Notes: generated by a model not told the origin, from the sequence alone. A DNA stretch of 64,000 nt from an uncultured bacterium (GCA_900553895.1 USFB01000001.1:49735-113734); one strand, 5' to 3'. Shown: positions 1,683 to 51,468, numbered from the stretch's first letter. Numbers and translations are program-made.

Positions 1683-1723
1683 GTCCCCACCCTAACCCTC
1701 CCTCGAAGGGAGGGAATAATGTT
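1683..1723. repeat. GC-rich palindromic repeat element copy A (ccccaccctaaccctccctcgaagggagggaataatg)
   Basis: Contains the perfect inverted repeat ccctccc-tcgaa-gggaggg in an AT-rich background. It shares the CCCACC / CTCCC..AAGGG..GGAATAATG motifs with the copy at 49745-49798 and with the 3' end of the pepP insertion. Confidence 0.5.
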
Positions 1724-1724
1724 A

Positions 1725-2450
1725 TTATCTTCTATCTTGGAGTTTAGCTAACAATCTCAAGATTTCTAAGTACAACCAAACCAATGTTACCATCAAACCG
1801 AAAGCTCCAAACCATTCGAAATCTTTTGGTAAATAGTTTTGAGCACCTCTTTCTATAAAATCGAAATCAATAATTAAATTAAGTGCTGCAATAACACAAA
1901 TAACGGCACTCACAGCAAGTCCCATTGTTGAAGATGAATTAATTAAAGGCACTTGCATATGGAAAAAGCTTCCAATAAAGTTAATTAAATAAATACCTGC
2001 AATTGAAAGCGTTGCAATGAAAATTACACTTCTAAATTTATCTGTACATCTTATAACATTTGCTCTATAAAGAATTAACATAGAAAATAATGCTGCAAAA
2101 GTACCAGCAACGGCTTGAGAAACAATTCCTGGATAAGATGCTTCGAAAGTAGCTGAAATACCACCTAATCCCAGTCCTTCTGCTACAGCATAGACTGGAA
2201 CTAAATATTTGTTTCTTGTAAATGAGACTATTAACGCAGTGATAAACGCAACAATAAAACCACCTGCAGTCAACATCATTGCCAAATCTGTATATCCAGC
2301 AGTCATTCTTGACCAAGTAAATGCAGCACTAGCAACAACCAACAGACCTAAAAATGCTGTAATTTGTATTGTTCCATTGACTGTCATTGGAGCACCATCA
2401 AGCACTCTTTCTTGTTCTGTAAACTTTTCATTCAAAATAGGGTTAGCCAT
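1725..2450 (-). CDS. Bax-inhibitor-1/YccA (TMBIM) family membrane protein
   Basis: 241 aa with 7 predicted TM helices and a typical BI-1/YccA sequence pattern. Confidence 0.65.
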   Translation of the reverse strand: MANPILNEKFTEQERVLDGAPMTVNGTIQITAFLGLLVVASAAFTWSRMTAGYTDLAMMLTAGGFIVAFITALIVSFTRNKYLVPVYAVAEGLGLGGISATFEASYPGIVSQAVAGTFAALFSMLILYRANVIRCTDKFRSVIFIATLSIAGIYLINFIGSFFHMQVPLINSSSTMGLAVSAVICVIAALNLIIDFDFIERGAQNYLPKDFEWFGAFGLMVTLVWLYLEILRLLAKLQDRR

Positions 2451-2618
2451 AAATCCTCCTTCTCTTATCTCATTAATGTGATTATAACATGTTTTAAAAA
2501 ATGGAGAAATGTTATTAATTATTTATTAACTATTATAATTGTTGGGATGGGTATCAACAAAGCGAAAAAACTAACAAGCCTTGGTCATTCCTTCATTATG
2601 AGAATGTATTGGCATAAT

Positions 2619-3173
2619 TTATTTCTGCTCAATTGTTCTTATAACCTTCGCCGGATTGCCAACTGCAAGAGAATTTTCAGGAATATCTTTTGTTACAACA
2701 GCACCTGCACCTATTACGCATCCATCACCAATTGTAACACCAGGTAAAACAACAACAGAACCGCCTAACCAACAGTTTTTACCTATTTTTATCGGTTTTG
2801 CTGTTTCTATAAAAGTATTTCTTGTTTTAAAATCCAAAGGATGTATAGGGGTGTAAAATTGAGTATTTGGTCCGATAAATGTATCATCGCCAATTGTCAC
2901 TTTTGCACAATCTAAAATAACGCAATTTGCATTAAAATAAACTCTTTCGCCGAGTTCTGTATTACATCCATAATCAAAGAATATATTTGGTGTTATATAA
3001 CATCCATTGCCCATTTTTCCGATTACTGATTTTAAGATTTCTGCTCTTTTATTCTCATCTTTTTCTTGATTAAAATCACTAACTAAACCTCTTGTTCTAT
3101 CTCGAAGGTTTATTAAATAAGGCGTCATAGGATTGTAATCCTCACCTGCAATCATTTTTTTGTATTCTTCCAC
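2619..3173 (-). CDS. Maltose/galactoside O-acetyltransferase-like (left-handed beta-helix acyltransferase)
   Basis: 184 aa with hexapeptide repeats and a Maa/LacA-like C-terminus. GTG start. Confidence 0.75.
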   Translation of the reverse strand: MEEYKKMIAGEDYNPMTPYLINLRDRTRGLVSDFNQEKDENKRAEILKSVIGKMGNGCYITPNIFFDYGCNTELGERVYFNANCVILDCAKVTIGDDTFIGPNTQFYTPIHPLDFKTRNTFIETAKPIKIGKNCWLGGSVVVLPGVTIGDGCVIGAGAVVTKDIPENSLAVGNPAKVIRTIEQK

Positions 3174-3272
3174 TATTAATCACTCCTTTATATAAAATTT
3201 TAACAAAAAAGAAACGGAATTTTGCGGTGCAAAATTCCGTTTAAAATCATACTTCAATAAAACAAATCCTGA

Positions 3273-3458
3273 TTAACTATAAATAGCATTTGTTTGCATG
3301 TGCATGTTTTTACGTGCATCATCAAAAATACCTGCAGGACTCCATTTTGTTTTATTATCTTCTTCATTCATCCTTGCTTTCTGCAAGTCTGCCCAAGTAG
3401 ACTGTGTTTTTGAAACATGACTTCTTGAACCATAATTTCCTGAAACATGCGGTGCCAT
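3273..3458 (-). CDS. Small hypothetical protein (61 aa), member of the shared-promoter group
   Basis: ORF preceded on the minus strand by AATTACTTTATATATACATAAG 37 nt upstream of the ATG. The same motif occurs at three other small ORFs. Confidence 0.4.
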   Translation of the reverse strand: MAPHVSGNYGSRSHVSKTQSTWADLQKARMNEEDNKTKWSPAGIFDDARKNMHMQTNAIYS

Positions 3459-3494
3459 ATTTATATCCTTTCTATTATATCTTCGTATTTATAA

Positions 3495-3516
3495 CTTATG
3501 TATATATAAAGTAATT
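3495..3516 (-). promoter_or_regulatory. Conserved promoter-like motif (A)ATACTTTATATATA[CT][AG]TAAG, copy 4
   Basis: The minus-strand sequence aattactttatatatacataag matches the motifs at 8265-8295, 35187-35210 and 35536-35565. Confidence 0.4.
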
Positions 3517-3614
3517 CAGAACAACATAATTTCACTTTTTATTAAAAGATTTACAAATCGTTACAAATAGTGTATCATTAGTATAAAGTTTGAATTTAAA
3601 TAAGAGGAAGTTTT

Positions 3615-4487
3615 ATGAGCAATATTGTAATTTATTCAACAAAACCAATGCCTGAGCTACAAGCTAAATTAATGGAAATAGATGAAGCGGAAGTTAGAGT
3701 TGTTTCTATTGATAAAATGAAAGATTACGCGGTTATCAATCCGTCTTTAATGATTGTAGAAAATATTGATTTGGCAAAAGATGCACTTATGACAAACAAA
3801 TTTCCATGCCCAATTTTATTTTTTGGACCAACAAGAAGAGATGTAACAGTTAGAGCAGAAGGCTTCGACTTTATTAAAGATCCAGCAAATACCGATGAAT
3901 TAATCGTTCGTGTCAATGCTTTATTAAGAATTAAGGCATTAAAAGATAAGTTAGAAAGAGTTTCTACAACTGATGACTTAACTGGTTTACATAATAGAAA
4001 ATATCTGCAAGAGCGTTTAGAAGAAGAAATTTCTCGTTCAAGAAGATATGGCACAAAATTATCTTGTATTTTATTCGATTTAGATTACTTCAAAGTTGTT
4101 AATGATATGTATGGATATGAATGGGGCGATATATTGCTAACTAAAATTGCGAATAAACTTAATGCAATGATTAGAAAAGAAGATATTTTAACTCGTTACG
4201 GTGATGAAGAATTTTTGCTTGTATTACCTAATACTTCAGAAGATAATGCGTTCTTATTCGGCGAAAGATTCAGAAGAGAAGTTGAAAAAATGGAATTTAT
4301 TCCGGCTGGTGAAGAAGAACCGCATAAAGTAACAATTTCAGGTGGAATTTCAACATACCCTTGTATGCCTGATGTTGAAGAGGATGCAAATACTATAATA
4401 AGATATGCTGAACATGCTTTATATAATGCTAAGCATAGAGGTAAGAATAAAATAATTCAATTCTCTCAGATGAATTTAGAAATGTAA
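3615..4487 (+). CDS. Pseudo-receiver + GGDEF-family domain protein (degenerate GDEEF motif)
   Basis: The N-terminal REC-like fold has Glu where the phospho-Asp is expected (LMIVENID). The C-terminal GGDEF fold carries RYGDEEF instead of RxGG(D/E)EF. Confidence 0.75.
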   Translation: MSNIVIYSTKPMPELQAKLMEIDEAEVRVVSIDKMKDYAVINPSLMIVENIDLAKDALMTNKFPCPILFFGPTRRDVTVRAEGFDFIKDPANTDELIVRVNALLRIKALKDKLERVSTTDDLTGLHNRKYLQERLEEEISRSRRYGTKLSCILFDLDYFKVVNDMYGYEWGDILLTKIANKLNAMIRKEDILTRYGDEEFLLVLPNTSEDNAFLFGERFRREVEKMEFIPAGEEEPHKVTISGGISTYPCMPDVEEDANTIIRYAEHALYNAKHRGKNKIIQFSQMNLEM

Positions 4488-4493
4488 TTAAAA

Positions 4494-4520
4494 AGAGCAC
4501 CTTATCGGGTGCCTTTTTAT
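4494..4520 (+). terminator. Rho-independent terminator
   Basis: Hairpin gcacc-ttatcg-ggtgc followed by ctttttatt. Confidence 0.6.
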
Positions 4521-4608
4521 TACAAAAATTAATCAAACTTAATACTTTTTTTCAAACTTTGGCATGTTTATAGTATTATAGAGAAAAAGTTGGAGGGATT
4601 ATTTTATA

Positions 4609-5424
4609 ATGTCAGTAGCATTAGAACAAAAACAAGGTTTAATCGCAGGTGATGGTCTTTTGCCTGTAAAAATGGCTCAATATGCTAAAGAAAATGGTTT
4701 TGACGTTGTTGCAATTTCTTTATCAAATGATAATTATGCACAACTTAAAAAATATTGCTCAAAAGTTTATTCTTTCTGTCCGGGAGAAGTTCAAAAAATA
4801 GAAGACACTCTTAAAGCGGAAGGTATTAAACAAATTACATTTTTAGGCAAAGTTAGTAAAACAATTTTGATTAAACGCCCTAAATTTGACGCAAGAGCAT
4901 TAGACTTTATCAAAAAAGCTATAAGATTAAACGATGATAAAGTAATGCTAATGATTATAGAAGAATTGGAAAAAATTGGTGTAACAATTTTAGACCAAAC
5001 TTTGTTTATCAAAAATTTAATGATTCCATCAGGAGTTTTGGGAAAAGTTCAACCAACTCCTGAACAAATTGAAGACGTAAATTATGGTTACTGGTTAGCA
5101 AAAGAAACAGGGAAATTAGATGTCGGTCAGTCTGTAATTATAAAAGATAAGATGGTTATGGCAGTTGAAGCAATCGAAGGCACAGATAAATGTATCAAAC
5201 GCGGCTGTAAAATTGCAAAAAGAAATTCAAGAGTTATAAAAGTTGCAAAACCTTCTCAAGACAAAAGATTTGATATTCCTGCAATAGGTTTAAGAACATT
5301 AAAAACAATGCACAAATATAAAGCAGACCTAATTGCCGTTGAAGCAGGTGAAACAATTATTGTAGATAGAGAAGAAGTTATTAAATACGCAAATAAGCAT
5401 AATATTGTTGTAATGGCTGTATAA
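4609..5424 (+). CDS. lpxI: UDP-2,3-diacylglucosamine pyrophosphatase LpxI (DUF1009)
   Basis: 271 aa with an LpxI-like N-terminus (GLIAGDGLLP). Sits immediately upstream of lpxB, as is typical. Confidence 0.65.
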   Translation: MSVALEQKQGLIAGDGLLPVKMAQYAKENGFDVVAISLSNDNYAQLKKYCSKVYSFCPGEVQKIEDTLKAEGIKQITFLGKVSKTILIKRPKFDARALDFIKKAIRLNDDKVMLMIIEELEKIGVTILDQTLFIKNLMIPSGVLGKVQPTPEQIEDVNYGYWLAKETGKLDVGQSVIIKDKMVMAVEAIEGTDKCIKRGCKIAKRNSRVIKVAKPSQDKRFDIPAIGLRTLKTMHKYKADLIAVEAGETIIVDREEVIKYANKHNIVVMAV

Positions 5425-5428
5425 TTTT

Positions 5429-6553: not shown

Positions 6554-6555
6554 AG

Positions 6556-6587
6556 AAAGAGCCGGACATTTGCCGGCTTTTAAATTT
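6556..6587 (+). terminator. Rho-independent terminator
   Basis: agccgg-acatttg-ccggct followed by a T-run. Confidence 0.6.
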
Positions 6588-6718
6588 CTACAACCTTTTT
6601 TCTAACCTTATATATTAATAAAGTTTTCTTTTGTAAAAAAATTGCTTTTTTATGTCGAAATGTAAAGTTAATTTATGTTATACTTTTTTGAGCAAATATA
6701 AATAGCAAAAGGAATATT

Positions 6719-7879: not shown

Positions 7880-7969
7880 TTGTAACAATACTTAACGAAA
7901 AATACTTGTAAAATAAATGTTTTTGAGGTAAGCTTGAGTTACACTGGTAGAAAGAAGGAAAATAGAACT

Positions 7970-8161
7970 ATGTCAAAACAATGTGAAGTATGCGGTAAAA
8001 AACCTATTAAAGCAGCAAAATTAACATTCTCTCATAAACAAATTAAAAAAGTTCAAACTCCAAATTTACAAGAAATTAGAGTTAATGTAAATGGTCAAAC
8101 TAAGAGAATGACAGTTTGCACTTCTTGCTTAAAAGCAGGCAAAGTTCAAAAAGCTGTTTAG
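7970..8161 (+). CDS. rpmB: 50S ribosomal protein L28
   Basis: MSKQCEVCGKKP...SHKQIKK...PNLQ...C..C pattern of L28. RBS gaaggaa upstream. The track ORF starts earlier at 7934 but the internal Met at 7970 is the likely start. Confidence 0.8.
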   Translation: MSKQCEVCGKKPIKAAKLTFSHKQIKKVQTPNLQEIRVNVNGQTKRMTVCTSCLKAGKVQKAV

Positions 8162-8182
8162 TTTTTTAGCAAAGTTTATTAG

Positions 8183-8215: not shown

Positions 8216-8251
8216 TTTTAAATATTAAGTTTTGTAACAATAATAACTCTC

Positions 8252-8295
8252 TGTGAAATTGTCTATTTTTTAAATACTTTATATATATGTAAGAT
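8252..8295 (+). promoter_or_regulatory. Conserved promoter-like motif TGTGAAATT-N-ATTTTTTAAATACTTTATATATATGTAAGAT, copy 1
   Basis: About 44 nt nearly identical to 35522-35565. The core is shared with 35187-35210 and 3495-3516. It ends 25 nt before the ATG at 8320. Confidence 0.45.
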
Positions 8296-8319
8296 GAAAA
8301 ATAACAAGGAGCTTAAATC

Positions 8320-8616
8320 ATGTCAACTAATATTAACGCAAACGTTCTTAAAAACTTTATAGTAAAAACTATCGGTGCTGAAAAATTAACACAAGCTCAA
8401 GCACAAAGATATGATATTGATGCTAACAAATACACTGAAGCAAATACAGATGAAAATGCTTATCTTGATTTAGATGAAATTCTTGATGATAAGGATTTGT
8501 ACGAACAATTTGCAACAATGTATGTTGAAGAAAAAGATAAAGAGAATGAAGTTAATGCAGAGAAAGAGAAAGAAGACGCCGCTAAGGTACAAGATAAAGG
8601 CGAAAGTAAAGCTTAG
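8320..8616 (+). CDS. Small acidic hypothetical protein (98 aa)
   Basis: ORF with an RBS (caaggag) and a D/E/K-rich C-terminal half. Followed by a terminator. Confidence 0.5.
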   Translation: MSTNINANVLKNFIVKTIGAEKLTQAQAQRYDIDANKYTEANTDENAYLDLDEILDDKDLYEQFATMYVEEKDKENEVNAEKEKEDAAKVQDKGESKA

Positions 8617-10401: not shown

Positions 10402-11709
10402 GTGTTAAAACTTAGTCAATTACAAAACCAAAAAACTTATACCCAACAAACATCATTCAAAGGGCAAAATTATATAGAATATATTGCAAAGCGACAGCTA
10501 GTTTTGAAGAATAAACATACTCCAAAGAAATATTGGACGCTTAATGACTTTAATATGAAGAAACTTGAAGGAATTCAAAGTGGGCTGAAAGTTTTAGGCA
10601 ATTTAACAATGACACAAATAAAAAGCATTACGGAGCGTGCCCTTGCCATAATTTTGCGTCGCGGATGTAACAATATGTGCGCACATTGTTATGCAGATGC
10701 AAGACCTGAAAGTTTTTATAAAAAAGAAAATTCAATATCAGAAATAAATATTGAAGATTTTAAAAATTTTTGTGACGACATAGTTGGTCTAAATAATAAA
10801 CTTGGATTTAATATTTTCAATAAAAAAAATAAATATGATTATCAAACATTATTTCTTGATGCAGATAGTTCAATGATTCAAGCTAAAGATAAAGATGGCA
10901 AAGAATATGATTATTTAGACCTTAGCAAAATGTTGCATGATAGTTGTAATAAAGAAGTTTTATTTGATACAGCCGGTTGGAATATTCAAGATAAAAAAAC
11001 TCAAAACAGAATAGATAAACTTGTGCAAAAATTCAACGATAATTATAATAAGTACAAATTTGTCCATTTTAATTTATCATTCAATCCATTCCATTCCTTG
11101 CACTACACTTCTATACAAAGAAAAAAAGAAGGTAAATACGATATTGCAGAAAAATTGGATGATATATACGCGACAAGAATGGCTAATACGATAAACACGC
11201 TATTACCTATATTTTTAAATCATCCTGACAATTTTTCTATTATTTCACGAAGTTTTGAAAATTTTGAAAATAAAAATACAGAAGGTTTTCAACAAATAGA
11301 TTTGGCAGAATTGTATGATAAAACATTGGATAAATTAAAAAATATCTTTTATGAAAAATTTATAGATGAATATTCTGAAAAAGAATTGGATAAAGAATTT
11401 GAAAATATAAAACAATATTTTCGTAAAAATAGCATGCAAACTGCAACAAGGATTGGTATTACCGGAAGATTAGCAAAAAGATTTGATTATAAAAATTTCA
11501 GAAAGACACTTGATGAAGAATTTCCTGATGCCAGTGATAAAGTTATATCCAACAATATGCCTGCCGGTTTAATAGATTTGAACGGGAAATTTTATATAAC
11601 TAATTATTTGGAAACATTTCCTACAAATATACAATTAAATTACACTAATAAAGATAAGCTGACTGCACCAATTAACCCTAATTTGCACGATCATACGGTC
11701 CAAATTTAA
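10402..11709 (+). CDS. Radical SAM domain protein
   Basis: CX3CX2C motif (CNNMCAHCY) about 90 residues from the N-terminus. 435 aa, GTG start. No other recognisable domain. Confidence 0.65.
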   Translation: MLKLSQLQNQKTYTQQTSFKGQNYIEYIAKRQLVLKNKHTPKKYWTLNDFNMKKLEGIQSGLKVLGNLTMTQIKSITERALAIILRRGCNNMCAHCYADARPESFYKKENSISEINIEDFKNFCDDIVGLNNKLGFNIFNKKNKYDYQTLFLDADSSMIQAKDKDGKEYDYLDLSKMLHDSCNKEVLFDTAGWNIQDKKTQNRIDKLVQKFNDNYNKYKFVHFNLSFNPFHSLHYTSIQRKKEGKYDIAEKLDDIYATRMANTINTLLPIFLNHPDNFSIISRSFENFENKNTEGFQQIDLAELYDKTLDKLKNIFYEKFIDEYSEKELDKEFENIKQYFRKNSMQTATRIGITGRLAKRFDYKNFRKTLDEEFPDASDKVISNNMPAGLIDLNGKFYITNYLETFPTNIQLNYTNKDKLTAPINPNLHDHTVQI

Positions 11710-11715: not shown

Positions 11716-11768
11716 GTTGGGCAAGTATGCCCAACCGACAAATCCTTGGGGAAGTGGGGAGAGTGTTA
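11716..11768. repeat. GC-rich repeat element copy D (hairpin ttgggca-agta-tgcccaa plus ccttggggaagtggggagag)
   Basis: GC-rich island in the AT-rich spacer between the radical SAM gene and nusA. Its reverse complement contains CTCCCCAC..CCCCAAGG, which resembles copies A and B. Confidence 0.35.
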
Positions 11769-11847
11769 TTAACTTTAACATCTTTAACATCAACAAAAAA
11801 GCAGAGGAAACTTGCGCTTCCCCTGCTTTAGTAATAATAATCTTAAA

Positions 11848-22082: not shown

Positions 22083-24185
22083 GTGAATACTGATAATTTT
22101 TTGATAGAAGAGAACGATATTGAGTTTGCTCAAAATATATGCAAAGTTATTGAAAATAGTGATATTCGTAACAGAGCCGTAGCAAACAATTTAGCATCAA
22201 AGATTGCAGAACGCTTTTTTGAAAAAGGCAGTCTTGATATTGATACAATGTCAGGATTACACAATATCGGGCACGTACTGGAAGATATCGATATTGCCGA
22301 TATTTATATAAACGGTTCTTACATTGATGTAAGGCTTTATTTTAATGATGAAGAATTAGGTGTGCCAAAAGCACATTTTGATAATAACTTGTTGCCTGCA
22401 GCATACATGTTCATAAAAATTACGCCTGATTTATCAGGTGCAACAGTTACAGGTTTTATGCAGCCGGAAGAAATTGATACATCAAATACAAAAGATGGTT
22501 TTATTATAATTGATGAAACTAAATTAGTTTCCTTCTATGATATTGAACCTTTATTAATAACCAAAGAAGATCCGTTTAACATTAATGAAGCTGACATTTT
22601 CGCTTATTTAGAAAATAATATTGCGAACAAAAATGCATTTTACAAATCATTAATTGCTTCAAAAGACGGCAGATTGAGATTAGCAAAAGCTAATAAGGCA
22701 CAATATGCATTTAATTTTATTTCAATAAATAACGATACTCAAAATGTAGCCGAAACATTAGATAATGGAATTATTTCTGATGAGCTTCTGCCTGATGAAT
22801 CGATTACTGATGATTTCGCAGATTTGGGTGATGAAACATTAGATTTAGAACCGACTGATGATATTGCTGACTTAGGTGATGAAACTTTGGATTTAGAAGC
22901 AACAGATGAGTTTACAGACTTAAGTCCAGAAACATTAGATTTAGAGCCAACCGATGATGCAACGCAGTTGGAAGAAACTGATGCCATTTCAGATGATATT
23001 AATGACGGTTTATCTTCTTCATTAGACACAGTAGACGACTTAGAACCGATTCAAACAGCGGATTTAGATATAATAGATGAATTTAATTTAGATTCAGAAG
23101 ATAACTCACTAGAAGAAACTCCTGCGGAAGGCACAGCTTCTTCAAATGATGAAATTTCGGAATTAAATCTTGATGTTGAAGAAAATAATACAGAAGAAAC
23201 TAAAGATAATATTCAAGATAGTAGTTTTGAATTTTCAACAGTAACATCTCCAAGCTTAAACTCGATTGGTGACAGTTTAGACAATTTATTAAGCAACGAT
23301 GATGAAGAGAATTCTTTAAATAATATTGCTGAAGAAATTGCACCTTATCAAGAAGAAAAAACTTCTGATAAGGACGTAGCTTTTGATATTCCTGATAATG
23401 TTCACGAAACAGAATCAGCACAAGATACTCATCATGTTGAAGAACAAAATGAATACGAAATCACTGAAGAAGAGCAAACAGATAATGCAGAACAAATTGG
23501 AAATCTGTTTAATGCAGATGAAACAGTAGAAGAAACAGCAAACATGCTTGAACAGAAACCAAAACAAAAAAGTTCTATAAAATTGCTTACAATTATTGGT
23601 TTGTTGGTTGTACTTGGTGCAGTAGGATATTTTGGTTACAATCAATTCACTAATCAGACTCCGCAGGAAGAAGAAAACAGTTTAGTTGCCGATGCGGTAC
23701 AAACACCGATTAATAACCAATCTCAAGAGGAGGCAATGCCTGTTGAATCAGTCGAATCAACTCTTCCTAAAATAGCTGATGAAGAAGGAACTGCAGAAAC
23801 AATACCGGCTATAGAACAAAATTTAGACGCTTCAATTCTTGTTTCTAATTTGAAAGTAGATTGGGAAGTTCCTGCAGGTTATGTATCGAATACTGCAGCT
23901 AAGAGATATCTTGTTAAACTTGGTAAAGTAATTCAATTGAACTTGAAAACAGAATTATTACTTTTGAACAAACCGCCTATCACAAACAAAATTGCAGTTG
24001 AAATCAAGTATAACAGCGGTGCAAAGAAATTCGAAGCTGTTGGCGTTACGGTATCAAGCGGTGAAAAAACTGTTGATGATTTAATCATGCAAACCGTAAA
24101 CAGAGCTTTAGCTATGAAATTAAGCGCAAATACGGATTCATTTAATAATATTCAGGGTAATCCTGTTTTAATCATACATTTATAA
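22083..24185 (+). CDS. Acidic tandem-repeat membrane protein with a TonB_C-like C-terminal domain
   Basis: 700 aa. N-terminal ~190 aa globular region. D/E-rich region with 17-aa repeats D(I/F)ADLGDETLDLEPTDD. Single TM helix (LLTIIGLLVVLGAVGYFGY). The C-terminal ~130 aa resembles a TonB/TolA C-domain (IAVEIKYNSGAKKFEAVGVTVSSGEKTVDDLIMQTVNRAL). Confidence 0.55.
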   Translation: MNTDNFLIEENDIEFAQNICKVIENSDIRNRAVANNLASKIAERFFEKGSLDIDTMSGLHNIGHVLEDIDIADIYINGSYIDVRLYFNDEELGVPKAHFDNNLLPAAYMFIKITPDLSGATVTGFMQPEEIDTSNTKDGFIIIDETKLVSFYDIEPLLITKEDPFNINEADIFAYLENNIANKNAFYKSLIASKDGRLRLAKANKAQYAFNFISINNDTQNVAETLDNGIISDELLPDESITDDFADLGDETLDLEPTDDIADLGDETLDLEATDEFTDLSPETLDLEPTDDATQLEETDAISDDINDGLSSSLDTVDDLEPIQTADLDIIDEFNLDSEDNSLEETPAEGTASSNDEISELNLDVEENNTEETKDNIQDSSFEFSTVTSPSLNSIGDSLDNLLSNDDEENSLNNIAEEIAPYQEEKTSDKDVAFDIPDNVHETESAQDTHHVEEQNEYEITEEEQTDNAEQIGNLFNADETVEETANMLEQKPKQKSSIKLLTIIGLLVVLGAVGYFGYNQFTNQTPQEEENSLVADAVQTPINNQSQEEAMPVESVESTLPKIADEEGTAETIPAIEQNLDASILVSNLKVDWEVPAGYVSNTAAKRYLVKLGKVIQLNLKTELLLLNKPPITNKIAVEIKYNSGAKKFEAVGVTVSSGEKTVDDLIMQTVNRALAMKLSANTDSFNNIQGNPVLIIHL
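22808..22975 (+). repeat. About 3.3 tandem copies of a 51-nt coding repeat
   Basis: The unit gatattgctgacttaggtgatgaaactttggatttagaaccgactgatgat recurs in frame. Confidence 0.6.
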
Positions 24186-31660: not shown

Positions 31661-31695
31661 GGTGGGAACCGCTCCGCTATTCCCACCCTACGCCT
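31661..31695. repeat. GC-rich repeat element copy C (ggtgggaa-ccgctccgcta-ttcccacc)
   Basis: 8-bp inverted repeat containing CCCACC, immediately followed by CCCTACGCC. Compare copy A, CCCCACCCTAACC. Confidence 0.4.
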
Positions 31696-31711: not shown

Positions 31712-31960
31712 TTATTGTTTACAGAATATTCCTACATAAGCAAAAAATATTATCAATCCGATTATAGCAATAGGTAATAATACAATTGTTACTATTATAA
31801 ACCAAGAGCAGGTTTTGTACATAAATTCTAAAAATTTGTGGTCATTAAATTTTGTAGCTATATGTTTTGCAATTATTAAAATCAAGCCAATTATGGCAAA
31901 CCATGTTGATATTCGAAGTTCTTGTAATGAATGTAAATATAAGTATTCAAAATTGTTCAC
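31712..31960 (-). CDS. Small membrane protein (82 aa, 2 TM)
   Basis: Hydrophobic ORF. No family call. Confidence 0.35.
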   Translation of the reverse strand: MNNFEYLYLHSLQELRISTWFAIIGLILIIAKHIATKFNDHKFLEFMYKTCSWFIIVTIVLLPIAIIGLIIFFAYVGIFCKQ

Positions 31961-34982: not shown

Positions 34983-35186
34983 AGAAAACCTCTTTGTATA
35001 TAGATTATAACTTATAGATAAAATTTACAATCAATCTTTTAGAGGATTTAAAACTTATAAAATTATTATGACATACCAACGTTCAATATTTTAGCAACAT
35101 TCAATTAGAATTGAATATTTAAAATTTACAAATTCGCTTTACATTCCTTAACAATTAAAAACAAAAAAGGCAATTTTTTGAAACTG

Positions 35187-35210
35187 AAATACTTTATATA
35201 TACATAAGAA
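35187..35210 (+). promoter_or_regulatory. Conserved promoter-like motif copy 2 (aaatactttatatatacataagaa)
   Basis: 20 nt upstream of the ATG at 35231. Confidence 0.4.
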
Positions 35211-35521: not shown

Positions 35522-35565
35522 TGTGAAATTTAGTTATTTTTAAATACTTTATATATATGTAAGAT
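35522..35565 (+). promoter_or_regulatory. Conserved promoter-like motif copy 3 (tgtgaaatt...atttttaaatactttatatatatgtaagat)
   Basis: Near-identical to 8252-8295. It ends 19 nt before the ATG at 35585. Confidence 0.45.
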
Positions 35566-35584
35566 TTAAAAAAGGTATAAGAAG

Positions 35585-36022
35585 ATGGCAAACACAGCAG
35601 CTTTATTAGGAAACTTATTAAATAAGAATGCAGACTATAACTATTATGCTATGCAACAAATATATTGGAACAATATGTATGAAGCAAATAGCGCAAAACT
35701 TAGCAAACAAACTAAGTATGAAGAAAAGTGGGAAAGTGCATTTGATGATGCACAAAACGTTGATAAACAATGTAAAATCGGAAACACAACTTGGAAAGAA
35801 AAAGATCAAGTTTTGAGTGATGCACAAGCAGATGCTTATGCACACGCGAAAGTAAAAGAATACAATGAAAGTTTATCACTAGAATTAGCAGATTTAGACT
35901 TAGAATACGATACAATGAGAAATATGTATGATACTTTGATGCAAGAATTGCAATCTCAAAAAGAATCTGCAAAATCAGTTACTTCTACTGCAGCTCAAGA
36001 TACAGGTTTATTACAATCATAA
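35585..36022 (+). CDS. Hypothetical protein (145 aa)
   Basis: ORF with an RBS, downstream of the conserved motif. Confidence 0.5.
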   Translation: MANTAALLGNLLNKNADYNYYAMQQIYWNNMYEANSAKLSKQTKYEEKWESAFDDAQNVDKQCKIGNTTWKEKDQVLSDAQADAYAHAKVKEYNESLSLELADLDLEYDTMRNMYDTLMQELQSQKESAKSVTSTAAQDTGLLQS

Positions 36023-37674: not shown

Positions 37675-37850
37675 GCTCCGCACAACCTCACTTGTCAGCA
37701 CTACCGTCCGAGATAATTTTGAAAAGCATATACCTCTTTTAATAAGTTGAATTGCTTCGTCACTATAAAATGTTCCTCGCAATGACCGGGCGTTTGACTT
37801 CCAAGCGTGCCGTCATTGCGAAGGCGATTAGCCTGAAGCAATCCAGCCTT
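37675..37850. repeat. GC-rich structured element E with a 12-bp hairpin (cctcgcaatgac...gtcattgcgaagg)
   Basis: GC-rich island between the ATPase start and the tolC-like stop. Long near-perfect inverted repeat at 37776-37825. Confidence 0.35.
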
Positions 37851-37924
37851 TTAATAACTATTTTTATTGTATTAAATAATTATTATGGATAATAATGCTA
37901 TCCATGGAGGTTGTTTGCTTTATC

Positions 37925-45830: not shown

Positions 45831-46048
45831 TGAACGATAATTCTATTAAAACATGTCCGTTTGCAGAAAATAAAGTTTGTAATGAAACTTGTCCTTTGTA
45901 TATTTCGCCTGAAGAATTGAACGAATTTGTAGTAGCAAGACTTTCTTCTATCGGAGTATTAGATAGAGCAGAAGGTGAATGTTCACTGAAAATGCTTGCA
46001 TTAAGCCAAGGTAGAGCTATTTTTGAAAATACAAATACTCGTGGGTAA
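45830..46048 (+). CDS. Small Cys-rich protein (72 aa) translationally coupled to the transketolase N-subunit
   Basis: TAATG overlap with the upstream gene. CX9CX3CP Cys pattern. It occupies the position where the transketolase C-subunit is expected. Confidence 0.35.
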   Translation: MNDNSIKTCPFAENKVCNETCPLYISPEELNEFVVARLSSIGVLDRAEGECSLKMLALSQGRAIFENTNTRG

Positions 46049-46060
46049 TAACGTTTTTAT

Positions 46061-46786
46061 CTAGCAATATAATAATTTGTACAAAATAACTCCGGCTGAA
46101 ATACTCAAATTAAGCGATTCGACCTTATCGGTCATTTCTATTGTTACATTTTTTGTTGCATAATCTTTTAGCTTTTGGCTCAAGCCTGATGATTCCGTAC
46201 CGAACATTATAAGAACTTTTTCTTGTGGCGTATAATCTTTTAGCCAAACGGTATTATCGGATTTAGGAAGTGTTGCAACTCTTTCATAATCTTCAAAAAC
46301 GCTCAAATCATCCATTTCAAAAACAGGAATTTTCCAAAGATTTCCAACGGATGAGCGCACACATTTTGGATTATACAAATCTACAGTATCACCATATAAT
46401 ACGACCGCATCAACATCAAAAGCACAAGCTGTTCTGAGGATTGTACCTAAGTTTCCCGCATCTTTGATATCTTCCAACAGAACTACTTTTTTATAGTTAT
46501 CTTGCCATTTTCGATTGATTTTTTTTGCAACAGCGACAGCTTTTGGCGCAGATTCTGTTGAAGAGATTTTAGAAAGTACGGCTTCTGTTGTTTCTATTCG
46601 TTCATTAAAATCTGTAAACTCGCTTGAGCCTTCCAAAACAAATAAGTGTTCTATTTCTAAACCTGATTCAATAGCTTCTTCAATACATTTAATACCTTCC
46701 AACAGAAAATGCTTTTTGCGGTATTTTCTCTGCAAAAGTTTTGCGGTTTCTTTCACTAATTCATTATTCACACTTGTTATTTTCAT
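46061..46786 (-). CDS. TrmH/SpoU-family RNA 2'-O-methyltransferase
   Basis: 241 aa with SPOUT motifs (LGTILRTA, GTESSGLS). Confidence 0.7.
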   Translation of the reverse strand: MKITSVNNELVKETAKLLQRKYRKKHFLLEGIKCIEEAIESGLEIEHLFVLEGSSEFTDFNERIETTEAVLSKISSTESAPKAVAVAKKINRKWQDNYKKVVLLEDIKDAGNLGTILRTACAFDVDAVVLYGDTVDLYNPKCVRSSVGNLWKIPVFEMDDLSVFEDYERVATLPKSDNTVWLKDYTPQEKVLIMFGTESSGLSQKLKDYATKNVTIEMTDKVESLNLSISAGVILYKLLYC

Positions 46787-48414
46787 AAGATTTTAAAATC
46801 CTTCAACCATTCTTTTTCTTGTTCATTCAGTAAATCATAGTTAATCAATTTACCTTCATAACCCATTTTAACAAAAGAATGAATTTTTCCACACTCCATG
46901 TAACAAGAATTTTCTAATCTTACGCCAAAATGTTCAGGATTATACAGCCCAGGTTCAATTGTGAATGTCATACCATCAACAATTTGCGTTTTAGCAATCT
47001 CGTTTTGAGAAAGGTTTGGTGGAGCTTCGTGCACATTGATTCCAATACCATGCCCTAGTCCATGACCAAATGTAAACCCTTCGATTTTATTATCTAAAAT
47101 AGAATGTGCCAACGTATCTATTTCAAAACCGCAAGGAGCATTGTCCCCTCGCCCCTTGTGGGAGAGCGGATTTTCGGTAGGGCGTAAGCCCGTAAGGTGG
47201 AGGTCGGACGTTACTCCGCCGACACCCCGAATAATCCAAGACGGGGAGCAGTCGTTAGCGAAGCTATGCTGAGCTTTACGGATGCGGGTGAGGGAATTAT
47301 CAAGATAATTAAACGAATTCAAAAACGCCTTCAATACCGTTGTATAAACCCTTTTCTGCAATTCATTCGGTTTACCTTTTACAAAAACTCTTGTAATATC
47401 GGTCGCCAAGCCACTGTCATAATACGCACCGCAATCAATTAAAACAAGCGAACCATCTTTTAAAATAACATCTTTGGCATTTTTTGCATAATGCGCCAAT
47501 GCCGAATTTTGATTAATTGCAACAATAGAATTAAAACTCAAAGATTTTGCACCGAATTTTATAAATTCTTCTCGCAAACGCTTTGCTATATCGTATTCTG
47601 AAAGATTATCATTATTTTCTATAAATTCTCTTATCGCAGAAACAGCCTTGTCAGTGCGCTCAAAAGCCTGCTTATAAGCTTCTAATTCTTCCTTTGATTT
47701 AACTGATTTCATGCTCTTTATTTCTGAAAATTTGTGAATAGGATTTTTGATTAAAGAATAATCATGCGCATTAATCGAATTTTTATCAACATTCAACTCA
47801 GCATCGAAGTTTTTTAAAAACTCATCAGTGTTATCTGTCAATAAAATTTGTTTTTCTTTGTCAGCATATAGTTTAGCCCAAATTTTTGATGAACAATCTT
47901 TTGAAAAATCACGTTTCCCGCTTATATAAGAAACTTCTTCCAAGTTTGTTACAAAAGTCGGATTCTCTGGATGGTATTCTTTTGCAGGCATTGCCTGAAC
48001 AAATTCTACGTTATGTGATTCTGTAAAATCATTAATCGGATCTTTATCTAATAATTTGATTTTATAATCTTTAAACGTCTCTAAACGTGTTTGAGAAATT
48101 TTTTTTGCAACAACACCTAATGTTTTATCAGGTCTGATAAGTTTTCTGATTTCATCATCTTGCTTTTGACCAAGTTTAAGTTTTACAACCGTAACACCCT
48201 CTTTTACTTCATTGTCAGCTTGTATATGATATCTGCCATCAACAAACAAATAAATATTATCTTTTGTAATTAAAGCATCACCAGTTGAGCCTGAAAAACC
48301 TGTCAAAGTGTATCGAGCGTTTTCGCTAAGAGCAGGATATTCTACTAAAAACTCATTTGTACAACACACGAGAAGATAATCCAAATTCAAATCGTTTAGG
48401 AGTTTGTTTGACAT
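46783..48414 (-). CDS. pepP: Xaa-Pro aminopeptidase (M24B) carrying an in-frame GC-rich insertion
   Basis: Creatinase_N plus an M24 domain with the DCGAYYDSGLATDITR metal site and HGLGHGIGINVHE. An extra ~65 aa encoded by a GC-rich element lies between the Asp-Asp and His ligands. Confidence 0.8.
   Translation of the reverse strand: MSNKLLNDLNLDYLLVCCTNEFLVEYPALSENARYTLTGFSGSTGDALITKDNIYLFVDGRYHIQADNEVKEGVTVVKLKLGQKQDDEIRKLIRPDKTLGVVAKKISQTRLETFKDYKIKLLDKDPINDFTESHNVEFVQAMPAKEYHPENPTFVTNLEEVSYISGKRDFSKDCSSKIWAKLYADKEKQILLTDNTDEFLKNFDAELNVDKNSINAHDYSLIKNPIHKFSEIKSMKSVKSKEELEAYKQAFERTDKAVSAIREFIENNDNLSEYDIAKRLREEFIKFGAKSLSFNSIVAINQNSALAHYAKNAKDVILKDGSLVLIDCGAYYDSGLATDITRVFVKGKPNELQKRVYTTVLKAFLNSFNYLDNSLTRIRKAQHSFANDCSPSWIIRGVGGVTSDLHLTGLRPTENPLSHKGRGDNAPCGFEIDTLAHSILDNKIEGFTFGHGLGHGIGINVHEAPPNLSQNEIAKTQIVDGMTFTIEPGLYNPEHFGVRLENSCYMECGKIHSFVKMGYEGKLINYDLLNEQEKEWLKDFKIL
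47140..47298 (-). repeat. GC-rich repeat element copy F inserted in-frame in pepP
   Basis: About 160 nt at ~60% GC inside a ~30% GC gene. It shares ccctcac-cgcatccgtaa with 50310-50330, and gccctaccgaaaatc plus attattcgggg with 51340-51465. Its terminal ctcccacaaggggcgagggg resembles copy B, ctcccgcaaggggcgaagg. Confidence 0.55.
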
Positions 48415-48505
48415 GTTCGCCTCTTTTTCTGTTTTTTATTTCCATAATTAATAAGGTAGACTAAAGTCTACCCTACTTTACAAGATTAATAAACCAATTA
48501 AATTC

Positions 48506-48784
48506 TTACTCATCAACATCCGTAAGTTTTATCAGGTGCCAACCGAATTGAGTTTCAACAGGTTTTGAAATTTCACCTTTTTTTAGTGCAAAAGCTGCAT
48601 CTTCAAAAGGCTTAACCATCATACCTTTACCAAACCATCTCAAATCCCCACCATCACGACCTGATGGACATTTAGAATATTGTTTTGCTAAATCTTCAAA
48701 AGCTACACCATTTTCAATATCAAGCAAAAGATTTTCTGCTTGTTCTTTTGTATCAACTAAAATGTGACTTGCTCTAATTTTCAT
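48506..48784 (-). CDS. ppiC: Parvulin-type peptidyl-prolyl isomerase
   Basis: 92 aa with the HILV...FGWH pattern. Confidence 0.8.
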   Translation of the reverse strand: MKIRASHILVDTKEQAENLLLDIENGVAFEDLAKQYSKCPSGRDGGDLRWFGKGMMVKPFEDAAFALKKGEISKPVETQFGWHLIKLTDVDE

Positions 48785-48869
48785 ATTTTTCTCCTTATTT
48801 TATAATTAGAATTTTAACATAAAAAAATGATATATAAAATAAAAAAAGCTCCTTTATAAAAAGGAACTT

Positions 48870-48905
48870 ATTATTAATATAAAAAAAAAGGCTAACCTTT
48901 CGGCT
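48870..48905 (-). terminator. Terminator after rplA (minus strand)
   Basis: On the minus strand: ggctagcc-gaaa-ggttagcc followed by ttttttttt. Confidence 0.5.
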
Positions 48906-48916
48906 AGCCGTAAATA

Positions 48917-49642
48917 TCAACCAACAATTTCTTTAACTTCTGCTTGAAGGTTCTTTGCATCAATCTTGATGCTTGGTCCCATTGTTGTTGTCAAATAGAT
49001 TGACTTAACATAAGTACCTTTTGCTGCAGAAGGTTTTGCTCTAAGAACTGCATCAACCAATGTTCCATAGTTCTTAACTAAATCTTCGTTAGCGAATTGA
49101 ACCTTACCGATAGGACAGTGAATCATACCCTGTTTGTCAGCTCTGAATTCAACTTTACCTGCTTTAGCATCTTTAACTGCTTTAGCAATATCAAGAGTTA
49201 CAGTACCAGTTTTAGGGTTTGGCATCAAGCCTTTAGGACCTAAAACTCTACCTAACTTACCTAACATACCCATACAGTCAGGAGTTGCGATTAATGTATC
49301 GAATTCAAACCAACCGCCAGCGATTTTGTCGATAATTTCTTCTGTTCCGTAGAAATCAGCACCTGCGTCTTTAGCTTCAGTAACTTTTGGTCCTTTTGCG
49401 ATAACGCAAACACGAACTTCTTTACCTAAACCTGCAGGAAGAACAACTGTTGATCTGATTTGTTGTTCTGCGTGTTTAACTTCAATACCTAATCTCATGT
49501 GACATTCAACTGTTTCGTTGAATTTTGCAACTTCTTTAGATACTTCTTGTAATTTAGTAAGAGCATCACGACCGCTAGCCGGTTGTTGGAAATCAGCTAA
49601 CAATTCTTGAAGCTTCTTTTGTTTTTTAGTTATTTTTGACAT
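48917..49642 (-). CDS. rplA: 50S ribosomal protein L1
   Basis: L1 sequence. Start placed at MSKITKK; the track ORF extends to 49660. Confidence 0.9.
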
Positions 49643-49744
49643 TTCTTTAAATCCTTTCATGGTGTTAACGGATTTTTCAATCCTTCCATATTATCTCTTT
49701 GTCCCTTATAAGAAGAAGGGATATTCGATGAGTAGATGTTATTC

Positions 49745-49798
49745 TACCCCTCATCCGGGCTCCGCCCACCTTCTCCCGCAAGGGGCGAAGGAATAATG
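49745..49798. repeat. GC-rich repeat element copy B (ccgcccaccttctcccgcaaggggcgaaggaataatg)
   Basis: Lies between rplK and rplA. It shares CCCACC, CTCCC, AAGG and GGAATAATG with copy A. Confidence 0.45.
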
Positions 49799-49805
49799 CG
49801 TTCAA

Positions 49806-50234
49806 CTAGTCTTCTTTAACAGTAACGCCCATAGCTCTGCAAGAGCCTTTAATCATGTTTACAGCAGCATCCATAGAAGTTGCGTTTAAATCGTTCATTT
49901 TAATTTTTGCGATTTCTTCTAATTGAGCTCTTGTAATTTCACCAACTTTAGTTTTGTTAGGAGTAGCTGAACCCTTAGGGATATTTAATGCCTTTTTAAT
50001 CAAAACTGGAGCTGGAGGTGATTTGATAACAAAAGTGAAACTTCTGTCTTCGTATACATCAATAATAACAGGGATAATATAGCCTGCTTGAGATTCAGTT
50101 TTTGCATTGAACTGTTTGCAGAAATCCATGATATTAACACCGTGTTGACCTAAAGCCGGACCAACTGGAGGTGATGGATTAGCTTTACCTGCTTGAATTT
50201 GTAGTTTAATTTTTCCTACTACTTTTTTTGCCAT
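49806..50234 (-). CDS. rplK: 50S ribosomal protein L11
   Basis: [13 protein letters not shown]..., canonical L11. Confidence 0.9.
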
Positions 50235-50249
50235 TTTGTTCTCCTTTCG

Positions 50250-50375
50250 TGGTACTAGCGGGGGGCACCCCCTTCCACGTTATTTGTGTTGTGTTTTCAA
50301 AGTGAAACCCTCACTCGCATCCGTAACTTTCGCTATGCTCAAGAGCGGTTGCGACCTCTCCAATGGAGAGGAGAA
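50250..50375. repeat. GC-rich element copy G in the rplK leader
   Basis: Contains ccctcactcgcatccgtaa, a 19/20 match to the pepP insert. It could additionally serve as the L1-binding leader. Confidence 0.4.
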
Positions 50376-50379
50376 GATT

Positions 50380-50991
50380 CTATAACTTTTGAATTTGTTT
50401 ATATTCTAATTCAACCGGAGTTTCACGACCGAATATAGAAACCATTGCTCTAAGTTTAGCCTTATCAGGATAAACTTCTGTAATGTCACCAACAAACTCA
50501 GCGAATGGACCGGAAGTAATTCTAACTTTTTCACCAACTTTAACATCCATTTCAATTTTTTGAGTTTGAGCTGTTGATCTGTGAATAATCTTTTTAATTT
50601 CACTGTCTTTTGCAGGAATAGGTTTTTTAGCAGAACCAACAAATTTGGTAACACCTGCTGTATGTCTTACTACATACCAGCTGTCTTCGTCCATAATCAT
50701 TTCTACTAAAACATAACCAGGGAAGATTTTTTCTTCTCTTTCTTGTTTTCTTCCGCCTTTAATTTGGGTAACAGTCTTTTGAGGAACTTCTACTCTAAAG
50801 ATTTTATCAGCCATGTTCATATATTCAATACGTTTTTCCAAGTTACTTTTAACTTTGTTTTCGTATCCTGAATAAGTGTGAACAATGTACCAACGTTTTT
50901 GATTTTTTCTTTCAGAAGACGCATGACTTTCAACTTCTTGAGTTTCTTCCATTACTTCTTCATTCATGATATTTTCGTCTTTTTCACTCAT
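50380..50991 (-). CDS. nusG: Transcription antitermination factor NusG
   Basis: NGN plus KOW domains. Position conserved between secE and rplK. Confidence 0.9.
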   Translation of the reverse strand: MSEKDENIMNEEVMEETQEVESHASSERKNQKRWYIVHTYSGYENKVKSNLEKRIEYMNMADKIFRVEVPQKTVTQIKGGRKQEREEKIFPGYVLVEMIMDEDSWYVVRHTAGVTKFVGSAKKPIPAKDSEIKKIIHRSTAQTQKIEMDVKVGEKVRITSGPFAEFVGDITEVYPDKAKLRAMVSIFGRETPVELEYKQIQKL

Positions 50992-51016
50992 TACTTTTAC
51001 CCTTTATAAATTTTAA

Positions 51017-51217
51017 TTAAAACTTAGATAACAACATATTGAAAATTACATCCACAAAATAAATAAAAACAGTGAATATAAAAACAATAGCAACAACAAA
51101 GAATGTTTCTACAACAACCTGATGTTTTTCAGGCCAAGTAATCTTGCCCCACTCAGTCTTTACGCCTTTAAAATAAGTAACAACATTTTTCTTTATTGTT
51201 TCAAAAGTATCATTCAT
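51017..51217 (-). CDS. secE: Preprotein translocase subunit SecE
   Basis: 66 aa, single TM, conserved position. Confidence 0.8.
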   Translation of the reverse strand: MNDTFETIKKNVVTYFKGVKTEWGKITWPEKHQVVVETFFVVAIVFIFTVFIYFVDVIFNMLLSKF

Positions 51218-51242
51218 TTTAATAACCTTTTTCTATAAAAAT

Positions 51243-51315
51243 CGCGCCCTGAAGGACTCGAACCCTCGACATCCGGTTTTGGAGACCGACGTTCTACCAA
51301 CTGAACTAAGGACGC
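51243..51315 (-). tRNA. trnW: tRNA-Trp (anticodon CCA)
   Basis: The reverse complement GCGTCCTTAGTTCAGTTGGTAGAACGTCGGTCTCCAAAACCGGATGTCGAGGGTTCGAGTCCTTCAGGGCGCG folds as a cloverleaf with a 7-bp acceptor stem, a GTTCGAGTC T-loop and anticodon loop CTCCAAA. Sits in the conserved rpmG-trnW-secE position. Confidence 0.85.
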
Positions 51316-51324
51316 ATGCGGGTA

Positions 51325-51468
51325 ATTAATACCCATTCCCAAATTATTCGGGGATGCAAGTTTTTGTTCCGTTATTAAATCCTTACGGATTCAGCCACTC
51401 CACCAAACTCTAGCATCTTGCGGGCTTGCTCGCTATCGCTCGACATCGCCCTACCGAAAATCTGGTTA
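51325..51468. repeat. GC-rich repeat element copy H between tRNA-Trp and rpmG
   Basis: Shares a 15-nt exact match gccctaccgaaaatc, plus attattcgggg and ctccacc, with the pepP insert. Confidence 0.45.

Follow-up and report, generated by a model that had tools for sequence, protein, structure and literature searches.

Short GC-rich palindromic units, the GC clusters, are mobile in the very AT-rich mitochondrial genome of yeast, where they are polymorphic between strains and occur in-frame in the var1 gene. Among bacteria, Rickettsia palindromic elements (RPEs) were reportedly described by Ogata et al. in 2000, and the SDR4-6 repeats of Nostoc and related cyanobacteria are said, after Elhai et al. 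in 2008, to be hairpins of 21-27 nt that are nested in other repeats, keep a conserved context and show recent mobility. Melainabacteria, an uncultured sister group of the Cyanobacteria, are known almost only through metagenome bins. In this study, we report the analysis of 64,000 nucleotides of DNA from an uncultured bacterium (GCA_900553895.1 USFB01000001.1:49735-113734; this whole stretch is called the window, and positions are counted from its first letter), in which GC-rich islands are dispersed between positions 1,683 and 51,468. With a probability of about 0.7, the islands are several families of small, GC-rich, hairpin-forming, non-autonomous mobile elements resembling RPEs, repetitive extragenic palindromic (REP) sequences and miniature inverted-repeat transposable elements, or MITEs. 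Judged by where their copies were found, the families appear to live mainly in AT-rich genomes of gut Gastranaerophilales, and also in some viral contigs.

RPEs are palindromic, relatively GC-rich sequences of ~100-150 bp in an AT-rich genome, which occupy spacers and also lie in-frame in unrelated housekeeping genes at positions tolerated by the fold (PMC10969869). REP sequences are palindromes of 20-40 bp with a stem of ~5-13 bp and an unpaired GTAG tag (GYAG, GTRG, GTMG) at one end; they reach a high copy number per genome, and the gene for the REP-associated tyrosine transposase (RAYT) is flanked by the repeats (PMC3733652). REPs, bacterial interspersed mosaic elements (BIMEs) and REPINs have loops with self-complementary modules, form inverted doublets and tandem clusters, and in most cases follow genes that are convergent or co-directional, with occasional copies within genes (PMC3733652, PMC3116915). 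Classical MITEs (Correia/NEMIS, ERIC, RUP) are non-coding, 100-200 bp long, with inverted ends, vary between strains, are often co-transcribed, and have long and short forms caused by internal insertions (PMC10969869).

Repeat families of the window and their variation between strains

The window has a GC content of 32.9%, and its ordinary housekeeping genes include the minus-strand cluster rpmG, tRNA-Trp, secE, nusG, rplK and rplA. Exact matches to its proteins come from human-gut metagenome assemblies, and L051, from a metagenome-assembled genome (MAG) named 'uncultured Candidatus Melainabacteria' in GTDB, is syntenic with window positions 46-55.5 kb at 77-93% nucleotide identity. Because of this synteny and these matches the host is identified as a gut relative of the Gastranaerophilales/Melainabacteria.

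Comparison with L002, a syntenic contig from a different gut sample, of the Hadza/Nepal metagenome sets, that is 95.6% identical to the window over 46.7-51.7 kb, showed four islands as the sole large indels in this interval. Alignment fails in the rpmG/tRNA-Trp spacer, in the distal nusG/rplK spacer, in the rplK/rplA spacer and at one spot in the open reading frame (ORF) 46783-48414, and relative to the same contig a fifth island (37696-37887) stands out as a clean ~190-nt insertion. A further combination is found in the third strain, L166, where the nusG/rplK element is kept with substitutions and the other two spacer elements are absent. The rotamase/pepP spacer, empty in the window, holds a composite of two of the elements defined below (L1+L3) in L051. 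A preliminary description of this DNA had taken the islands for a MITE/REP/RPE-like repeat family, and presence/absence polymorphism between genomes that are 95.6% identical bears this out as to kind.

All eight GC-rich islands of that description are present at the positions it gave and are conspicuous in a 30-nt GC scan. Of the sequence blocks they were said to share, the two long ones lie far beyond chance (GCCCTACCGAAAATC, two window copies vs 0.00 expected from shuffled sequence; CCCTCACNCGCATCCGTAA, two vs 0.01), whereas two short ones are marginal: CCCACCYTA has two copies vs 0.17 expected, a number matched in 2 of 100 shuffles, and AGGGAATAATG has five matches at up to one mismatch vs 1.3 expected, with just two of the five inside islands. 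The islands do not form a single family, as had been proposed, and can be assigned by sequence to at least five unrelated element types, namely L1, L2, L3, D and two REP-type palindromes with GTAG/GTMG tags. Most of them do lie in spacers; the one at 47140-47298 lies in-frame within ORF 46783-48414. Several borders were also redrawn: the element at 37675-37850 extends over ~37696-37887, that at 49745-49798 belongs to an insertion of ~49690-49803, the repeat in 50250-50375 is confined to 50308-50371 next to a conserved rplK leader, and in 11716-11768 the palindrome at 11716 stands while 11745-11768 is not shown to be a repeat. The same is true of the nearby nusA terminator (~11800-11835), a true terminator. 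The features of the window, other than those inside ORF 46783-48414, are as follows.

1683-1723, plus strand: L1, empty form, CCCCACCCTAACCCT CCCTC-GAA-GGGAGGG AATAATG, in the BaxI/RmuC spacer
11716-11739, minus strand: REP-type tagged palindrome, GTCG + GTTGGGCATACTTGCCCAAC, immediately following ORF 10402-11709 and its stop codon
18674-18692, minus strand: half copy (one arm) of D, GGATTGCTTCAGGCTAATC, 84% complementary to 37826-37862 and missed by the preliminary description
31661-31691, minus strand: REP-type palindrome GGTGGGAA-N11-TTCCCACC followed by CTAC (GTAG on the minus strand), between ORF 31712-31960 and an SNF2 gene
37696-37887, no strand assigned: D-type inverted doublet GGATTGCTTC..CGCAATGAC - 25 nt - GTCATTGCGAGG..GACGAAGCAATTC, with AT-rich arms, between OEP and CbiA-like genes
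49745-49798, plus strand: L1 with the mini-hairpin GGGCTCCGCCC in slot 1, part of the ~110-nt insertion 49690-49803 in the rplK/rplA spacer
50237-50295, minus strand: conserved GC-rich rplK 5' leader, GGAAGGGGGTGCCCCCCGCTAGTACCACGAAAGGAG, with a GC hairpin, not a repeat
50308-50371, plus strand: L1 (50308-50316 and 50355-50371) whose slot 1 is occupied by L2 (50317-50354), located antisense to the operon in the nusG/rplK spacer
51341-51464, plus strand: long-hairpin L3, located antisense to the operon in the rpmG/tRNA-Trp spacer

The similarities extend beyond the window, with related copies at more than 100 loci of related genomes. In Rfam only the tRNA-Trp reached the gathering score, the islands matched no family, and a search of release 15 at E up to 10 gave nothing credible over the islands or over a typical L3 copy. 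Neither confinement to the window nor identity with known cis-regulatory RNAs, the two outcomes named as speaking against a repeat family, was therefore observed, since copies recur elsewhere and no Rfam family matches.

Nesting of these elements is slot-specific. L1 has the layout CCYCAYCC-[slot 1]-TAACCCT-[slot 2]-hairpin, the hairpin being CTCYCC-loop-GGRGAGGG. L2 (GCATCCGTAA...ACGRCTGC, ~36-39 nt) was found directly 3' of CCYCAYYC, that is in slot 1, in six of six independent copies; the inner part of L2 varies and has opposite orientations in the two copies of the window. The slot used by L3 lies between CCCT(G) and CTCYCC of L1, and L1[L2][L3] composites occur at unrelated loci (window, L056, L063, L132, L142 and L164). 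The empty L1 at 1683 is present in all eight strains L167-L174 as two alleles, whose stems (CCCTCCC/GGGAGGG vs CCTCCCA/TGGGAGG, from comparison with L167, L170 and L172 at 3726-3781) are each self-complementary, which points to module replacement or compensatory change; similar empty copies are present in L088, L161, L048 and L107. The site of the 49690-49803 insertion measures 19 nt in L002 and has a different sequence in L166, and the composite at 50308-50371 is replaced by unrelated sequence in L002 and present with substitutions in L166. Between the window, L002 and L166 the neighbouring segment 50237-50295 shows a single-base difference, and the sequence adjoining it is replaced; the segment has no Rfam match and is likely to be a conserved regulatory leader of the L11/L1 operon.

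The D unit (GTCATTGCGAGG...GACGAAGCAATCC) is present in the window as an inverted doublet of 190 nt. Copies that are 87-89% identical over 179 nt were found in L136 and L143, and the same doublet in L058 and L119. Of the two tagged palindromes, that at 11716-11735 has a 7-bp stem and its hairpin is conserved among close strains (L007-L014); the tag of the window copy, GTCG, fits the published GTMG variant, and three GTAG-tagged relatives lie within 3 kb of each other in L162. The palindrome at 31661-31687 has an 8-bp stem, and relatives with the same stem and tag and another loop are found in L063 and L132. When strains were sought for comparison at this island, the small ORF was traced only to a contig of the same sample, and the iPGM protein had no record.

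Two further observations concern these families. Five independent Logan contigs (L008, L009, L012, L013 and L014) stop at one base inside the 11716 palindrome (window 11716-11740), which suggests a break of the assembly graph at repeated or variable sequence. The Mac/BaxI spacer (window 2450-2619; around 2551-3000 in L167-L174) is empty in the window and L174, is 85 nt longer in L170 and L171, and 280 nt longer in L167-L169, L172 and L173, the extra sequence being composed of L1-like and D-like modules.

A nested in-frame insertion in the aminopeptidase P gene

ORF 46783-48414 encodes an M24 aminopeptidase P (pepP), the Pfam M24 domain of which is split in two stretches by the island. Within the gene the composite is made up of four segments.

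47286-47294, minus strand: left half of L1, CCCTCACCC
47248-47285, minus strand: L2 of 38 nt, GCATCCGTAAAGCTCAGCATAGCTTCGCTAACGACTGC, occupying slot 1 of L1
47165-47241, minus strand: L3, short form, in slot 2 of L1 and in the sense direction of pepP
47144-47164, minus strand: right half of L1, CTCCCACAAGGGGCGAGGGGA, which pairs with the left half in the predicted fold

The insert comprises 159 nt, or 53 codons, is in-frame and free of stop codons. Its L3 is matched at 47165-47241 on the minus strand with 88.3 bits (E = 9e-20) by R1, the covariance model built for L3, and is absent from L002, L003, L165, L166 and L004-L006. An uninterrupted L1 (CCCTCACCCTAACCCTCTCCCACAAGGGACGAGGGGG) is found in the pepP allele of L166. 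Homologues align end to end with the product save at one point, where they carry 0 (proteins of 488-491 aa), ~15, ~26 or 53 extra residues, and the alleles of the site can be arranged in a series.

L004: no element, 18 nt
L002 and L166: L1 only, 60 and 66 nt
L165: L1+L2, 96 nt
Window: L1+L2+L3, 180 nt

The frame is kept at every step of this series and all invariant residues of the enzyme family are retained. The product is encoded on several contigs and belongs to a protein cluster of 51 members. In an AlphaFold model built from a shallow alignment (mean pLDDT 66), insert residues 370-423 have pLDDT <50 and lie between two helices, which would fit a tolerated loop but does not prove one. The pepP alleles, with 0, ~15, ~26 or 53 residues added at one codon, provide a clean natural case of a protein loop growing step by step through repeats, a phenomenon for which the earlier records are mainly from Rickettsia.

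Structure, distribution and surroundings of L3

L3 measures ~80-130 nt and forms a three-way junction with invariant ends. In the aligned copies its 5' end is TGTCTTGGATTATTCGGGG and its 3' end CGCCCTACCGAAAATCCGCT, and the two pair in an 11-bp stem (P1); the terminal inverted repeats, in which GGATTATTCGG pairs with CCGAAAATCC, are invariant across 69 to 93 copies. P2 is a variable hairpin of several unrelated sequence types in long and short forms, and P3 is a conserved CUUACGGGC...GCCC with a 4-bp stem that can bear an extra variable hairpin. GTAG tags are present in the two tagged hairpin families and beside P3 of L3, where the tag overlaps the stem by one base and was itself included in the search pattern. 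Since P1 and P3 never vary, they are uninformative on pairing. In P2, pairs changed on both sides numbered 10 of 12 in a MAFFT alignment and 12 of 12 when 93 distinct copies were aligned by model, with a covariation score of 0.219 vs at most 0.06 for slid controls. The hairpin geometry is thus conserved while the sequence of P2 changes, and folding z-scores range from -2.3 to -3.5. G-T pairs outnumber A-C pairs (75 vs 28), an excess driven by two columns, which does not settle the strand. A likeness of antisense L3 to twister or pistol ribozyme cores was dropped because those Rfam models did not match.

GTDB was searched with the exact 17-mer CGCCCTACCGAAAATCC, one genome per species, and at least 120 loci were found. 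Among the 80 titled matches listed, 54 name Gastranaerophilales, Melainabacteria, Vampirovibrio or Cyanobacteria and 17 are unnamed bacteria; the few others lack the left half of L3 or are possibly mis-binned. The 16-mer CGCCCTACCGAAAATC from the right end has 10 true copies in viral contigs of IMG/VR, and blastn of L3 against annotated phages gave no match. In many species, and in viral contigs as well, unrelated loci whose flanks are also unrelated hold L3 units that are nearly identical (up to 100% over 80 nt). R1 found 100 copies in 702 kb of genome loci, a density to be read as that of loci picked for containing L3 and not of complete genomes; there are at least 3-5 copies per MAG. In the 64-kb window it found two, that in pepP and a match at 51346-51458 on the plus strand (27 bits, E = 2e-4), and over the syntenic loci of other strains it found none; the 51341-51464 copy is absent from both L002 and L166.

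No target-site duplication was found in the flanks of 101 distinct L3 copies, which share just TGTCTT (5') and GCT (3'), both belonging to the element itself; an apparent 'CT' duplication in L1 hosts and a 'TATAT' at one copy do not generalise. About 45% of the copies lie in slot 2 of L1, and the rest after L2, in D-type or other palindromes, or in plain spacers. Of 104 copies, 90 are intergenic and 14 lie in open frames, all in sense, most of these frames being doubtful. Where both neighbours could be called, copies between co-directional genes are antisense in 15 cases and sense in 7, and convergent surroundings outnumber divergent ones 14 to 4; the window's own two copies are oriented oppositely with respect to their local transcripts. 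Because of this placement, the orientations and the lack of duplications, L3 is better regarded as a mobile element acting at the level of DNA than as a cis-acting RNA.

Two or three L3 units follow one another head to tail, with a 96-nt period, in L073 (54-166), L078 (3228-3436) and L131 (3120-3357). The notion that every L3 copy is lodged within another hairpin's loop was rejected, as flank complementarity (run of at least 6 bp) was 22% vs 16% in shuffled pairings; such positions are anecdotal for L052, L088, L094 and L079. Insertions of L3 in genes beyond pepP mostly involve short, doubtful frames and were set aside. In L111 (723-811), L129 (2528-2616) and L133 (6645-6713) the 3' end of L3 reads ..PYRKS(G/A) in-frame right before FTLAEVLITLGIIG, a prepilin-type N-terminal motif, so that in three genomes a pilin-like gene has its leader bordered or provided by L3. 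These copies were discarded as insertions in conserved enzymes, since each lies just upstream of a prepilin-like N-terminus or is fused to one.

In 13 loci, among them the viral contig L020, the L3 copy has conserved flanks and is situated ~105 nt inside the left border of a transposon of the TnsB/TniB type, followed by TGCACT repeats. This transposon usually lies just downstream of tRNA-Ile and carries genes for DUF2971, a Mu-transposase_C/rve protein (~600 aa), a TniB-like ATPase (226 aa) and a Phage_int_SAM protein (186 aa), with Mrr, Hypoth_Ymh and a toxin-antitoxin pair as cargo. It was located as follows.

L045, 2978-7875: TnsB/TniB-type transposon
L097, 2133-6352: TnsB/TniB-type transposon
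L065, L098, L126, L157, L154 and the viral contig L020: further loci of the transposon

In L065, L097, L098, L126 and L157 a second, inverted L3 lies in the spacer after the ATPase gene; it is missing in L045. L3 was rejected as the terminal repeat of the transposon, because it lies ~105 nt inward of the conserved left border and its second copy occupies an internal spacer. No transposon of this type was found in the window.

Origin of the repeats and comparison with known systems

If the islands are mobile elements, they would be non-autonomous and copied in trans by an enzyme encoded elsewhere. By analogy with the tyrosine HUH transposases that act on REP (RAYT, IS200/IS605), this enzyme would recognise folded single-stranded DNA; an HUH-type enzyme appears the most plausible one because of the missing target-site duplication, the GTAG-tagged palindromes, the hairpin geometry and the head-to-tail arrays. 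Selection would remove every frame-breaking insertion in a gene, which would explain why the pepP copy is a multiple of three and lies in a low-confidence stretch between helices.

Several points weigh against such an origin. No transposase was linked to any of these elements: the segment between the inverted REPs of L162 holds neither a transposase nor a RAYT, and in ~1.1 Mb of related loci blastp and phmmer found no IS200/RAYT-like ORF, a weak test in which the query was an IS608 TnpA sequence. L1, L2 and D are without GTAG tags. Mobility itself is deduced from patterns of presence and absence, and the copy counts of L3 are lower bounds from exact 17-mer loci, not counts per complete genome. 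Finally, the conserved junction of L3 and its two fixed positions in the transposon might reflect an independent function of L3.

A reading of L3, and perhaps of further hairpins, as structured RNAs that serve the host (cis-acting stabilisers, processing sites or small RNAs) and have spread secondarily would account for a three-way junction with invariant P1, P3 and junction and covariation in 12 of 12 P2 pairs, for the folding z-scores (-2.3 to -3.5) and for convergent contexts being commoner than divergent ones (14 vs 4). We regard it as unlikely, since the window copies are oppositely oriented to the local transcript, antisense copies exceed sense copies between co-directional genes (15 vs 7), L3 is present or absent between strains that are 95.6% identical, one copy lies within a coding frame, nothing in Rfam matches even at E up to 10, and the excess of G-T over A-C pairs, coming from two columns alone, decides nothing. 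Copies in both orientations to transcription and variation between strains likewise speak against the RNA processing or protein-binding structures that the preliminary description had offered as an alternative. Improbable to a slightly greater degree is an explanation in which L3 is a working part or preferred landing site of the tRNA-targeting TnsB/TniB-type (Tn7/Mu-like) transposon, solo copies being decoys, footprints or former targets. The 13 loci with L3 ~105 nt inside the left border and the second inverted copy after the ATPase gene in five loci agree with it; however, L3 does not lie at the termini, no second copy is present in L045, the window contains L3 twice and no such transposon, L3 shows neither a 5-bp duplication nor TG...CA ends, and the ~45% of copies in L1 elements are far from any transposon. 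It is also conceivable, though with low odds, that L3 is a conserved three-way-junction device that directs or controls transposition as RNA or folded DNA, or that it moves into hairpin elements by an undescribed, duplication-free chemistry. This idea draws on the invariant ends, junctions and P3, the exchangeable P2 and P3 extension, the two fixed transposon positions and the occurrence in viral contigs.

Spread without any dedicated transposase, by recombination, gene conversion or template switching, with nesting as in-place expansion of hairpins, would fit the failure to find either a target-site duplication or an enzyme, the L1 alleles at 1683 that differ in stem yet remain self-complementary, the inverted inner part of L2 and the apparent interchangeability of hairpin modules. 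Near-identical L3 units are, however, found at unrelated loci of many species and in viral contigs, and whole composites recur at different loci; copying to new sites, and not just growth in place, is therefore needed, and we consider this explanation quite improbable. Chance GC-rich hairpins or ordinary intrinsic terminators have already been refuted and retain next to no probability. Some short motifs are just marginally enriched and a true nusA terminator lies near 11800, but blocks of 15-19 nt, none expected by chance, are shared, hundreds of related copies exist elsewhere, and no island was called as a terminator, so the earlier remark that the islands, mostly without U-runs, are not simple intrinsic terminators holds.

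As small mobile elements, the repeats come closest to described families in different respects. The pepP composite is in-frame, free of stop codons and at a tolerated position, as RPEs are. RPEs, in contrast, have a Rickettsia host and are not described as three nested layers, and here a single in-frame case in a conserved enzyme was found; since the host belongs to the Melainabacteria, the elements are an analogue of RPEs and not members of the families RPE-1 to RPE-10 of the genus Rickettsia. The hairpins at 11716 and 31661 agree with REPs in palindrome and stem size, and P3 of L3 has a 4-bp stem. The inverted doublet of D, the 96-nt arrays of L3 and P3 of L3 fit REP/BIME patterns, and at the place of the tag there is CTAC directly after the stem at 31661 and GTCG in the window copy at 11716, with GTAG in its L162 relatives. 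Differences from REPs are that L3 is a junction of 80-130 nt and not a simple palindrome of 20-40 bp, that L1, L2 and D are untagged and the GTAG of L3 overlaps the stem by one base, and that no RAYT was found (in the L162 segment, and in the ~1.1 Mb of loci with the IS608 TnpA query). The SDR repeats, compared by description alone, resemble these elements as tiny hairpin units nested in repeats, and their cyanobacterial hosts are the sister lineage of the Melainabacteria; they measure 21-27 nt, whereas the units here measure 38-190 nt. L3 with its terminal inverted repeats and D with its inverted doublet are MITE-like. MITEs, however, leave target-site duplications, of which L3 has none in 101 copies, and derive from identifiable insertion sequences (IS), whereas here the lone transposon adjacent to L3 carries it internally and no parent IS was found. 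The likeness to yeast GC clusters is an analogy alone, with an eukaryotic organelle and unrelated sequences.

No description of such repeats in Melainabacteria was found in full-text literature searches. The elements are probably a familiar kind of selfish DNA that appears to be new in this group, and not a new principle; a function of L3 tied to the transposon, if true, would be the exception. Provided that they are mobile elements, gut Melainabacteria hold a rich and active set of miniature repeats. Such repeats break short-read assemblies, several contigs ending inside an island, and create spurious or lengthened ORFs. They are also sensitive strain markers, as three strains differ from one another in state at each of four neighbouring spacers, and the covariance model of L3 offers a handle for finding the mobilising enzyme.

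Two other repeats were noted in the window. An AT-rich repeat of ~50 nt (TGTGAAATT...AAATACTTTATATATATGTAAGAT) is present at 8252-8301, 35522-35571 and 35160-35208, and inverted at 3488-3565; two copies are 86% identical and lie just upstream of ORFs 8320-8616 and 35585-36022, and the repeat may be a shared promoter or operator or a further repeat family. Inside ORF 22083-24185, three tandem acidic repeats of 48 nt (16 codons), 77-81% identical, occupy positions 22806-22958.

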